In this document: positions 6,802 through 10,850 of the stretch, piece by piece
Position numbering within the stretch: the first letter of the stretch is position 1
Layout of the letters: each line of letters begins with the position of its first letter
NCBI RefSeq assembly: GCF_056712565.1
Contig: NZ_CM160072.1
Direction: 5' to 3' (one strand)
Length of the DNA stretch: 64,000 bases
Program-made: the position numbers and the translations under genes
The notes under the pieces: model-generated
What the model was told of the DNA's origin: nothing
The model's input: the letters and a program-made list of their open reading frames with translations, nothing else
Databases searched by the model: none

Positions 6802-8163
6802 ATGTCTTTCGATTCTTTGGGTTTAAGCCCTGATATCCTGCGCGCCGTTGCCGAGCAGGGTTACCGTGAACCCACCCCTATTCAGCAGCAGGCGATCCCT
6901 GCGGTGCTGGAAGGCCGCGACCTGATGGCCAGCGCCCAGACCGGTACCGGCAAAACAGCGGGCTTTACGCTGCCGCTGTTGCAACACCTGATCACTCGCC
7001 AGCCGCACGCCAAAGGGCGTCGTCCGGTACGCACGCTCATTCTTACCCCGACCCGTGAACTGGCGGCGCAGATTGGCGAAAACGTCCGTGATTACAGCAA
7101 ATATCTGAACATTCGTTCGCTGGTGGTGTTTGGCGGTGTCAGCATTAACCCACAAATGATGAAGTTGCGCGGCGGCGTTGATGTGCTGGTGGCAACGCCG
7201 GGACGTCTGCTGGACCTGGAACATCAAAATGCAGTGAAGCTGGATCAGGTTGAAATCCTCGTCCTTGATGAAGCTGACCGCATGCTCGACATGGGCTTTA
7301 TCCACGATATCCGTCGCGTGTTAACAAAACTGCCAGCGAAGCGCCAGAACCTGTTGTTCTCCGCGACCTTCTCTGACGATATTAAAGCCCTGGCGGAAAA
7401 ACTGTTGCACAACCCGCTGGAAATCGAAGTGGCACGCCGCAATACTGCGTCTGATCAGGTGACCCAGCACGTTCACTTTGTCGATAAGAAACGCAAACGC
7501 GAATTGCTGTCGCATATGATTGGGAAAGGGAACTGGCAGCAGGTGCTGGTGTTTACCCGTACCAAACATGGCGCTAACCATCTGGCTGAACAGCTTAATA
7601 AAGACGGCATCCGTAGTGCGGCGATCCACGGTAATAAATCGCAAGGTGCGCGTACTCGTGCGCTGGCCGATTTTAAATCGGGCGATATTCGTGTACTGGT
7701 GGCAACTGACATCGCTGCGCGCGGTCTGGATATCGAAGAGTTGCCGCACGTCGTCAACTATGAGTTACCAAACGTACCGGAAGATTATGTTCACCGTATC
7801 GGGCGTACTGGCCGTGCGGCGGCAACTGGCGAAGCATTGTCGCTGGTGTGTGTTGATGAACACAAACTGCTGCGTGATATCGAAAAACTGCTGAAAAAAG
7901 AGATCCCGCGCATTGCGATTCCGGGGTATGAGCCGGACCCGTCAATCAAAGCCGAACCGATCCAGAACGGTCGCCAGCAACGTGGCGGCGGTCGTGGACA
8001 GGGCGGTGGTCGCGGTCAACAGCAACCACGCCGTACGGAAAGTGGTGCGAAGTCTGGTAACGCGAAGCCCGCAGAAAAACCGTCTCGTCGTCTCGGCGAT
8101 GCCAAACCGGCAGGCGAACAACAACGTCGCCGCCGTCCGCGTAAACCTGCCGCTGCGCAGTAA
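6802..8163 (+). CDS. rhlE: ATP-dependent RNA helicase RhlE (DEAD-box)
   Basis: Q-motif and Walker A (AQTGTGKT), DEAD box ([14 protein letters not shown]), [11 protein letters not shown] motifs; Arg/Gly-rich C-terminal tail. Confidence 0.95.
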
Positions 8164-8214
8164 TCTTTTATGCCGGGCTATGCCCGGCATGAGACTGATG
8201 ACAAACACAAAACT

Positions 8215-8313
8215 GCCTGATGCGCTACGCTTATCAGGCCTACGTGAACTCTGCAATATATTGAATGTGCATGTTTTTGTAGGCCGGATAAGGCGCTCGC
8301 GCCGCATCCGGCA
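8215..8313. repeat. REP/BIME cluster (two inverted REP units) in the rhlE-ybiA intergenic region
   Basis: gcctgatgcgctacgcttatcaggcctac and gtaggccggataaggcg...cgccgcatccggca are canonical E. coli REP palindromes; preceded by hairpin tgccgggctatgcccggca at 8171-8189. Confidence 0.6.
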
Positions 8314-8395
8314 TTTCACAACAAGCACTTGTCAGCCATTTGCGAGCGCGGCAAAAAGATTTCTCTGTTTTAACGCCCACAAGCCACCCGATGCG

Positions 8396-8590
8396 TTACT
8401 TCTCCGCAGCCAATTGTCCGCGCAACGCCATTAAAAGGTACCCCAGGCGATTCTTGCCCTGACCATTACCGCCATCTCCCCAGTAAGCATCATTTTGCGT
8501 ATGCTCAACCAGTTTTGCGGACGCGGTTGCCCGCAAGAGTGTACGCAGTTCTGCATGTTGTTCGAATTTAGCGCGAAGCGCTTTACGCAT
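8396..8590 (-). pseudogene. ybiA: 5'-truncated remnant of ybiA (NADAR-family N-glycosidase); only the C-terminal ~64 codons are homologous
   Basis: Minus-strand ORF 8396-8701 (101 aa): last 64 aa (MRKALRAKFEQHAEL...DAYWGDGG...GKNRLGYLLM...) match the YbiA C-terminus; first 37 aa are read antisense through the dinG promoter and LexA box up to the dinG ATG. Intact YbiA is about 160 aa. Confidence 0.6.
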
Positions 8591-8666
8591 CATCCTGCTG
8601 GTTATTGCGAGCCGCTTTCCCGAAACAGAAAAACCATTACCCCTGAAAACCGAAAAATGCCACAAT

Positions 8667-8686
8667 ATTGGCTGTTTATACAGTAT
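8667..8686 (+). promoter_or_regulatory. dinG SOS (LexA) operator, non-canonical box
   Basis: tattggctgtttatacagta about 15-35 bp upstream of the dinG ATG; matches the known atypical dinG LexA site (from memory). Confidence 0.5.
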
Positions 8687-8699
8687 TTCAGGTTTTCTC

Positions 8700-10850
8700 A
8701 TGGCATTAACCGCCGCGCTTAAAGCGCAAATTGCCGCCTGGTATAAGGCGCTTCAGGAACAGATCCCCGACTTTATTCCCCGTGCGCCGCAGCGGCAGAT
8801 GATTGCGGACGTCGCCAAAACGCTGGCCGGAGAAGAAGGGCGGCATCTGGCGATTGAAGCCCCTACCGGCGTTGGGAAAACGCTCTCCTATTTGATCCCC
8901 GGCATCGCCATTGCCCGCGAAGAGCAAAAAACGCTGGTGGTAAGTACCGCCAACGTGGCATTGCAGGATCAGATCTACAGCAAAGATTTACCGCTGCTGA
9001 AAAAGATCATTCCCGATCTTAAATTCACTGCCGCTTTTGGGCGTGGGCGCTACGTTTGCCCGCGTAATCTGACAGCGCTCGCCAGCACTGAGCCCACGCA
9101 ACAGGATCTGCTGGCGTTTCTTGACGATGAACTGACGCCGAACAATCAGGAAGAGCAAAAACGTTGTGCGAAGCTGAAGGGCGATCTCGACACTTATAAA
9201 TGGGATGGTCTGCGCGATCATACTGATATCGCTATAGATGATGATCTCTGGCGTCGTTTGAGTACCGACAAGGCCAGCTGCCTCAACCGCAACTGTTATT
9301 ACTATCGCGAATGCCCGTTTTTTGTCGCTCGTCGGGAAATTCAGGAAGCGGAAGTGGTGGTGGCAAACCATGCGCTGGTGATGGCGGCGATGGAAAGCGA
9401 AGCGGTATTGCCTGACCCGAAAAATTTACTGCTGGTGCTGGACGAAGGTCATCACCTGCCGGATGTGGCGCGGGATGCGCTGGAGATGAGCGCCGAAATC
9501 ACCGCGCCGTGGTATCGGCTACAGCTGGACTTGTTCACGAAACTGGTCGCTACCTGCATGGAGCAGTTTCGCCCGAAGACCATCCCGCCGCTGGCGATCC
9601 CTGAACGTTTGAATGCGCATTGTGAAGAGTTGTATGAGCTTATCGCCTCGTTAAACAACATTCTCAATCTCTACATGCCTGCCGGGCAGGAGGCAGAGCA
9701 CCGTTTTGCGATGGGCGAACTGCCAGATGAAGTGCTGGAGATCTGCCAGCGGCTGGCAAAACTCACCGAGATGCTGCGTGGCCTGGCGGAGTTATTTCTT
9801 AACGATTTAAGTGAGAAAACCGGCAGCCATGACATTGTACGTCTGCATCGGTTGATTTTGCAGATGAACCGCGCATTGGGGATGTTCGAGGCGCAAAGCA
9901 AACTCTGGCGGCTGGCGTCTCTGGCGCAATCTTCCGGTGCGCCGGTGACCAAATGGGCGACGCGGGAAGAGCGCGAAGGGCAGCTACACCTTTGGTTTCA
10001 CTGCGTGGGAATACGTGTCAGCGATCAGCTGGAAAGGCTGCTGTGGCGCAGTATTCCGCACATTATTGTTACCTCCGCAACCTTGCGTTCGCTGAACAGT
10101 TTTTCGCGTTTGCAGGAGATGAGTGGGCTGAAAGAGAAAGCGGGCGACCGTTTTGTGGCACTGGATTCCCCTTTTAACCACTGTGAACAGGGCAAAATTG
10201 TTATTCCCCGGATGCGCGTTGAGCCTTCCATCGACAACGAAGAGCAGCACATTGCCGAAATGGCGGCCTTTTTCCGTGAACAGGTGGAGAGCAAAAAACA
10301 TCTCGGTATGTTGGTGCTGTTTGCCAGCGGGCGTGCGATGCAGCGCTTTCTCGACTATGTGACGGATTTACGCCTGATGTTGCTGGTGCAGGGCGATCAG
10401 CCACGTTATCGCTTAGTTGAACTGCACCGCAAACGCGTTGCCAACGGTGAGCGTAGCGTGCTGGTGGGCTTACAGTCCTTTGCCGAAGGTCTTGATCTGA
10501 AAGGCGATCTGCTCAGCCAGGTGCATATCCACAAGATCGCTTTTCCGCCCATCGACAGCCCGGTGGTGATCACCGAAGGTGAATGGCTGAAAAGCCTCAA
10601 CCGCTATCCGTTTGAGGTGCAAAGCCTGCCGAGCGCTTCGTTTAACCTGATTCAGCAGGTTGGGCGACTGATTCGAAGCCACGGTTGCTGGGGGGAAGTG
10701 GTTATCTACGACAAACGCTTGCTGACAAAAAATTATGGCAAGCGACTACTGGATGCATTACCGGTATTTCCGATAGAGCAACCGGAAGTCCCTGAAGGTA
10801 TAGTTAAAAAGAAAGAAAAAACGAAATCCCCACGCCGTCGGCGGCGTTAA
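8700..10850 (+). CDS. dinG: ATP-dependent DNA helicase DinG (716 aa)
   Basis: 716-aa ORF MALTAALKAQIAAWYKALQEQ..., Walker A APTGVGKT, DEGHH box, Fe-S cluster cysteines (CLNRNCYYYRECPFF). Confidence 0.95.
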   Translation: MALTAALKAQIAAWYKALQEQIPDFIPRAPQRQMIADVAKTLAGEEGRHLAIEAPTGVGKTLSYLIPGIAIAREEQKTLVVSTANVALQDQIYSKDLPLLKKIIPDLKFTAAFGRGRYVCPRNLTALASTEPTQQDLLAFLDDELTPNNQEEQKRCAKLKGDLDTYKWDGLRDHTDIAIDDDLWRRLSTDKASCLNRNCYYYRECPFFVARREIQEAEVVVANHALVMAAMESEAVLPDPKNLLLVLDEGHHLPDVARDALEMSAEITAPWYRLQLDLFTKLVATCMEQFRPKTIPPLAIPERLNAHCEELYELIASLNNILNLYMPAGQEAEHRFAMGELPDEVLEICQRLAKLTEMLRGLAELFLNDLSEKTGSHDIVRLHRLILQMNRALGMFEAQSKLWRLASLAQSSGAPVTKWATREEREGQLHLWFHCVGIRVSDQLERLLWRSIPHIIVTSATLRSLNSFSRLQEMSGLKEKAGDRFVALDSPFNHCEQGKIVIPRMRVEPSIDNEEQHIAEMAAFFREQVESKKHLGMLVLFASGRAMQRFLDYVTDLRLMLLVQGDQPRYRLVELHRKRVANGERSVLVGLQSFAEGLDLKGDLLSQVHIHKIAFPPIDSPVVITEGEWLKSLNRYPFEVQSLPSASFNLIQQVGRLIRSHGCWGEVVIYDKRLLTKNYGKRLLDALPVFPIEQPEVPEGIVKKKEKTKSPRRRRR

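Follow-up and report, generated by a model that had tools for sequence, protein, structure and literature searches.

A ybiA remnant upstream of dinG in Escherichia coli is very probably an old deletion pseudogene, shared with Escherichia albertii

Introduction

YbiA, an enzyme of the NADAR family, acts on riboflavin intermediates and on guanine that has been ADP-ribosylated. In Escherichia coli K-12 its gene (ybiA, b0798; N-glycosidase YbiA/NADAR, PDB 2B3W) lies on the minus strand between rhlE and dinG, and the same locus is the subject of this report, as it appears in a stretch of 64,000 nucleotides of contig NZ_CM160072.1 (RefSeq assembly GCF_056712565.1) that we call the window. The last 64 to 65 codons of the gene in the window are homologous to K-12 ybiA (approximately 90% nucleotide identity, 55 of 65 residues); unlike the K-12 gene, however, what remains has lost codons 1 to 95 together with the start codon and the 13 nt directly upstream, scores below the cut-off of the TIGR02464 profile, and appears to evolve neutrally. 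We regard it as very likely that this remnant is a non-functional pseudogene, the product of a single old 298-bp deletion flanked by repeats, that has drifted neutrally in the B2 lineage of E. coli and in Escherichia albertii.

The remnant is an ordinary and already known feature, an old, neutrally decaying pseudogene flagged in RefSeq, where UTI89_RS03855, for example, is the identical feature at identical coordinates and differs in nothing. Deletions between short direct repeats (microhomologies) are known to make pseudogenes in bacteria; there, as here, one copy of the repeat is kept and the deletion is as long as the interval from one copy to the other, but the ybiA repeat is imperfect (7 of 8 positions) and its mechanism of loss is one that we infer. 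Other strains hold espX2, or a PaaA2-family antitoxin with a RelE/ParE toxin, in the same slot. Those states swap in foreign genes entirely, whereas the remnant state is an internal deletion of ybiA. A search of the literature on ybiA as a pseudogene or in phylogroup B2 found no description of the allele. What we add is the exact breakpoint with its direct repeats, a count among complete genomes, the description of the locus as one of four states, and the apparent crossing of a dead allele between E. coli and E. albertii.

Results

Alignment of window positions 8140–8760 with the K-12 rhlE-ybiA-dinG region, a comparison proposed in an earlier note on this DNA, yields one 298-bp gap and nothing else; the two sequences are otherwise collinear. 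The missing segment is K-12 approximately 832,666–832,963 and comprises ybiA codons 1 to 95, including the start codon, and the 13 nt upstream. The note had proposed a deletion of the 5′ half of ybiA together with part of the ybiA-dinG spacer, leaving a C-terminal remnant of about 64 codons of a protein given as about 160 residues long, and each element of that description is borne out: K-12 ybiA encodes 160 residues at the orthologous position, profile coverage is confined to the last 65 codons, and of these, codons 97 to 160 are homologous while codon 96 was rebuilt at the junction. Codon 96 is GTG in K-12 and ATG in the window, its first base now coming from the upstream flank; rebuilt at the junction in this way into a second ATG, it gives the remnant its initial 'MM'.

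The deleted segment is bounded by short direct repeats. In three full-length alleles, those of K-12, KE40 and the more distant locus L015, the pentamer CGCAT occurs twice at a spacing of exactly 298 bp, one copy lying within ybiA codons 96 to 98 and the other 6 to 10 nt upstream of the ybiA ATG. The imperfect 8-bp form of the repeat, ACGCAT[C/T]A (codons 96 to 98, and 6 to 13 nt upstream of the start), has its 7 of 8 matching positions in the closest full-length allele; in L015 the repeat is longer, ACGCATCA and ACGCATTA. A single copy is left in the window, at 8586, where the junction reads ACGCATCA followed directly by TCCTGCTGG, with the left repeat running straight into the flank on the right, a structure with which overlapping BLAST segments agree.

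The remnant is contained in an open reading frame (ORF) of 101 residues. Residues 33 to 97 of this ORF match positions 88 to 162 of the 163 in the Pfam NADAR profile (E = 3.5e-17) and also residues 92 to 160 of 2b3w_A, the E. coli YbiA chain whose structure is solved. The remnant itself, though above the gathering cut-off, spans only Pfam positions 92 to 162, where K-12 YbiA spans 2 to 162. On the NCBIfam profile TIGR02464 (riboflavin-intermediate N-glycosidase) it reaches 61.9 bits over positions 84 to 152 of 153, against a cut-off of 73.7 and against 169.5 bits over positions 1 to 152 for the K-12 protein. The remnant, then, has no full-length NADAR/YbiA profile match above a curated cut-off. 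In the P. nicotianae NADAR the active site combines residues of the two halves of the fold, E43, K50, R79, W89 and R93 and then E125, D130 and W133 (PMC11543638). Because the site is divided in this way and the remnant is the C-terminal half, half of the active site is gone; of the N- and C-terminal residues and the subfamily-defining Glu in the last beta strand that make up a complete site, only the C-terminal part is present.

Relative to K-12, the remnant has a nonsynonymous divergence (dN) of 0.08 and a synonymous divergence (dS) of 0.25. The corresponding dN values are 0.0006 for dinG (dS = 0.114), 0.0056 for rhlE and 0.0027 for ybiB, and dN between two full-length ybiA alleles is 0.011. 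Twelve carriers of the deletion show nine nonsynonymous and three synonymous changes, where a neutral expectation of about 3.3 to 1 follows from the site counts; the changes include a leucine-to-proline replacement and, within the conserved GDGG stretch, G to E and G to S. At least five replacements that carriers have in common affect sites that do not vary among the proteins compared from E. coli, E. marmotae and the cryptic clade. Neither dN nor the nine-to-three ratio gives evidence of purifying selection on the remnant, which, judged by its substitutions, is evolving neutrally, the signature of a pseudogene. Its homology, moreover, extends over only part of a gene that relatives carry intact at the orthologous locus, and the native start codon with the preceding 13 nt lies inside the deleted 298 bp, as expected of a pseudogene made by partial deletion. 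Searching proteins with the 65-residue remnant gave short fragments for the most part, and none of the matches was a full-length sequence informative about its ancestor. One single-nucleotide polymorphism (SNP), at 8532, is peculiar to the window among the sequences compared and replaces L with R in the remnant.

The start of the 101-residue ORF, which the earlier note had described as lying antisense over the dinG start codon and LexA box and as no native gene start, is indeed both. Its ATG is the complement of 8699–8701 and overlaps the dinG ATG at 8700–8702, and the frame reads through TATTGGCTGTTTATACAGTA at 8666–8685; it exists because the retained DNA upstream of dinG happens to contain no stop codon in the ybiA frame. 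In UTI89, SK1144, E2348/69 and others, what RefSeq (Prokaryotic Genome Annotation Pipeline) records is the 198-nt remnant and no more, entered as a pseudogene under the label 'NADAR domain-containing protein / NADAR family protein; incomplete; partial in the middle of a contig; missing N-terminus'. Older GenBank and UniProt records deposit the 101- or 65-residue ORF as 'swarming motility protein YbiA' or 'N-glycosidase YbiA'. The label is an over-annotation, and identity with the enzyme is impossible. The names Staphylococcus aureus and Enterobacter appear on a handful of partial records with nearly the same sequence, probably through contamination or mislabelling.

The earlier note had suggested looking for the deletion in other sequenced strains. 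We counted carriers among 5426 complete E. coli genomes with a 48-mer centred on the junction, each arm being too short to seed a match alone; megablast counts with 371-nt and 801-nt queries were discarded, since the pieces were joined across the gap and deletion and intact alleles became inseparable. The 48-mer is present, in single copy, in 1117 genomes (about a fifth), among them UTI89, APEC O1, IHE3034, ATCC 11775, E2348/69 and the Nissle-derived SYNB1934; protein records add 536, SE15 and ST131. We take all of these named carriers to belong to phylogroup B2.

The rhlE-dinG interval is a four-state polymorphic slot, and the junction is its second most common state. The 5′ half of a K-12-type ybiA is present in 3429 genomes, espX2, a type III effector gene (O157:H7 and others), in 542, and the PaaA2-family antitoxin with the RelE/ParE toxin (e.g., ST38) in 325; with the junction, these account for 5413 of the 5426. 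In the espX2 and toxin-antitoxin states, exemplified by loci L005 and L008 (NZ_CP032805.1) and L006 (NZ_CP044403.1), the alternative occupants replace window 8164–8600. Both ybiA and the spacer of repetitive extragenic palindromes (REP) are wholly absent from these, and K-12 homology is found again directly beyond rhlE on one side and, on the other, at −95 to −99 relative to dinG, versus about −103 in the remnant state, so that all four states have a common right boundary approximately 95–105 bp upstream of dinG.

The allele is not confined to E. coli. The 90% protein cluster of the 101-residue ORF includes E. albertii records, and the same junction was found in all six E. albertii examined, five assemblies and the type strain NBRC 107761 (loci L009–L014). 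Eight substitutions in the remnant and seven in the rhlE-ybiA spacer occur in every carrier of both species and are absent from K-12, KE40 and L015. Between the B2 and E. albertii consensus sequences, 10 of 430 nt differ (approximately 2.3%), two of them in the remnant and eight in the spacer, whereas the synonymous divergence of E. coli and E. albertii in the flanking genes is 0.34 (rhlE), 0.28 (dinG) and 0.35–0.38 (ybiB). Sliding identity rises from approximately 85–93% in rhlE to 96–98% over positions 8080–8800 or thereabouts, and is lower again thereafter in locus L013. The carrier spacer stands 7–10% from other E. coli alleles, as against the 25–30% or so expected of native E. albertii sequence. 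On these comparisons, a short patch of interspecies homologous recombination, covering window positions approximately 8182–8800, would be the best reading of the shared allele. The hairpin directly after rhlE, GCCGGGC-TAT-GCCCGGC, differs between the species in its loop (8179–8181), which is TAT in all E. coli alleles compared and ATA in all E. albertii alleles; the difference could reflect inversion of the loop or mark where the recombination patch ends on its left.

Upstream of dinG, positions 8601–8699 are identical to K-12 save for one SNP, A to C at 8621, 79 bp upstream of the ATG and found in the window alone among six B2-type carriers compared. The LexA box and the ATG at 8700 are identical to those of K-12 and identically spaced, so the earlier statement that the SOS box and start are intact holds, and the sequence is that predicted for an SOS-regulated dinG with an intact operator. 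The box is asymmetric, and we recognise in it the dinG LexA operator, which was reportedly described by Lewis and Mount in 1992 and by Lewis and colleagues in 1994. It had also been claimed that the promoter context on the far side has changed. This is literally true, the change beginning about 103 bp upstream of the dinG ATG, but it was overstated, and because three other natural states of the locus alter the same side at −95 to −99, the sequences indicate no effect on dinG. A promoter and terminator scan of 8150–8760 returned no consensus sites and placed neither the dinG nor the ybiA promoter; a mapped dinG promoter was not found in the literature. Scanning species representatives for the LexA box recovered four Escherichia loci only, E. 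fergusonii, E. marmotae and others being unplaced by the scan.

The layout of the locus is given in Table 1; ybiB is the next gene after dinG. An Rfam scan of 8100–8800 gave nothing above the gathering score, the only matches being sub-threshold ones to ES036/CssrF and naRNA4/CssrE, which we take to be REP-derived families.

Table 1. Features of the rhlE-dinG locus in the window (BIME, bacterial interspersed mosaic element)
Feature	Position	Strand	Basis or detail
rhlE, ATP-dependent RNA helicase, left flanking gene	6802..8163	+	ORF list; RefSeq annotation of identical UTI89 region
rhlE-ybiA spacer, 232 bp	8164..8395	.	Terminator-like hairpin ~8170-8190; REP/BIME palindromes ~8215-8330 (inverted repeats I1, I2)
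ybiA remnant, pseudogene, codons 96-160 and stop codon, 198 nt	8396..8593	-	Pfam and TIGR02464 profiles, RefSeq, substitution pattern
Mechanical 101-residue ORF (35 non-homologous codons and remnant)	8396..8701	-	ORF list
Deletion junction, one surviving direct-repeat copy ACGCAT[C/T]A	8586..8597	.	Alignment, overlapping BLAST segments, repeat spacing
Retained dinG upstream region (promoter and operator)	8598..8699	+	Identical to K-12 except 8598, 8621; ~95-100 bp of it also present in the espX2 and toxin-antitoxin states; read on the - strand, source of the non-homologous 5′ extension of the 101-residue ORF
dinG LexA (SOS) box TATTGGCTGTTTATACAGTA, intact, binding predicted	8666..8685	+	Direct sequence reading; operator identity as reported (Lewis and Mount 1992; Lewis et al. 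1994)
dinG, intact, 716 residues	8700..10850	+	ORF list

Other forms of decay were seen at related loci. In Escherichia sp. MOD1-EC7003 (L019, approximately 2744–2878 of the extracted segment; P0049) a nearby REP copy has replaced the centre of ybiA, an independent truncation whose 68-residue product has REP-derived N-terminal residues. Isolate AHB21 (L007, NZ_OZ547226.1) has an internal stop in ybiA, and in the same isolate ISKox3 (ISL3-like; locus positions 1595–2910, with an 8-bp target duplication) splits the LexA box of dinG and removes its left half, an arrangement that may leave dinG derepressed or mis-regulated. Outside Escherichia, the nearest YbiA relatives in a large protein set are approximately 70–77% identical, the few that are named being mostly from Planctomycetota (the E. 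marmotae protein is 91% identical), and no intermediate enterobacterial orthologues are among the matches listed for K-12 YbiA. From these comparisons, ybiA may itself be a horizontally acquired occupant of the rhlE-dinG slot.

Discussion

One deletion between the two imperfect 8-bp direct repeats very probably turned ybiA into a pseudogene, with slippage during replication, or illegitimate recombination at the microhomology, as the likely mechanism. The event spared the promoter, LexA box and coding sequence of dinG, and the remnant has since drifted neutrally. A patch of approximately 0.5–0.7 kb most likely carried the allele into E. albertii from a B2-related E. coli donor. Our preference for a donor of that kind is moderate, and we hold it because the carrier spacer is only 7–10% from other E. 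coli alleles.

Nothing favours the view that the short form is ancestral and that K-12 gained 298 bp by insertion, except that a gap between two sequences is by itself undirected. That reading is ruled out by NADAR profile coverage and is scarcely credible: the segment that would have been gained codes for the N-terminal half of a domain that is conserved across phyla, the match of K-12 YbiA runs the length of the profile, full-length homologues number in the thousands, and ybiA is full-length at the same locus in other Escherichia (L015; E. marmotae P0084). If the event was a deletion, the repeats could be a hotspot at which the segment was lost twice, once in B2 E. coli and once in E. albertii, since the repeats are found in all full-length alleles examined and ybiA has been inactivated separately elsewhere, by REP-associated replacement in MOD1-EC7003, by the internal stop in AHB21 and in frameshifted variants. 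Against this stand the 15 substitutions that carriers of both species have in common and that K-12, KE40 and L015 lack, which exclude independent deletions in the history of these alleles; we reject recurrence as very improbable. A common origin might instead predate the split of the two species, the allele, which sits at the same locus in both, having descended vertically as an ancestral polymorphism. A neutral remnant and spacer of that age should differ at about the flanking dS of 0.28–0.38, yet only 10 of 430 nt differ, and the spacer stands nearer to the remaining E. coli alleles than would be expected of sequence native to E. albertii. A stretch ten times less diverged than neighbouring synonymous sites was not inherited vertically since the split, and we consider this origin, too, highly unlikely and reject it in favour of a single deletion later moved by recombination.

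It may be asked whether the remnant, once formed, was given a new use. The 65- or 101-residue ORF could be a functional mini-protein, such as a C-terminal NADAR fragment with a new role, perhaps SOS-regulated through the LexA box: the frame is open through the junction, it is kept in many B2 and E. albertii genomes and deposited as a protein, and an AGG stands just before the ATG ATG of the junction. That AGG, however, lies only 0–3 nt from the ATG, a poor spacing for initiation, and the longer ORF would have to start inside the start codon of dinG. The nine-to-three substitutions fit neutrality and strike the conserved GDGG region, five amino-acid changes fall at sites invariant among the full-length alleles compared, and the N-terminal half of the active site is missing. 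With neutral substitutions, half an active site and poor start signals, we reject the mini-protein, which we think most improbable. A broader proposal is that the interval is a recombination slot exchanged within E. coli and across Escherichia; if loss of YbiA were favoured in B2 and in E. albertii, the remnant would represent convergent adaptive loss spread by recombination and not mere decay. We find this doubtful, though less so than the foregoing alternatives.

Some considerations weigh against a silent B2 pseudogene transferred to E. albertii. The promoter region on the ybiA side is retained and might still drive transcription of the remnant. Placing the 1117 genomes in B2 relies on recognised strain names. 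The direction of transfer depends on small counts in a REP-rich spacer, where concerted evolution could distort distances, and the E. albertii comparison covers deletion-type loci only.

The finding is of local interest and changes the understanding of no system, but it has some practical consequences. The ~95 bp before dinG are the same in all four natural upstream contexts, which sets a limit on the cis-acting sequence that dinG requires. As a marker the junction is clean and records a single event; it identifies the lineage that includes UTI89, APEC O1, 536, E2348/69 and ST131, and also E. albertii. Finally, approximately 37% of complete E. coli genomes (1117 + 542 + 325) are without an intact ybiA at this locus, and studies that assume YbiA in every E. 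coli, whether of riboflavin damage control, of swarming or of the reversal of guanine ADP-ribosylation, should take this into account.

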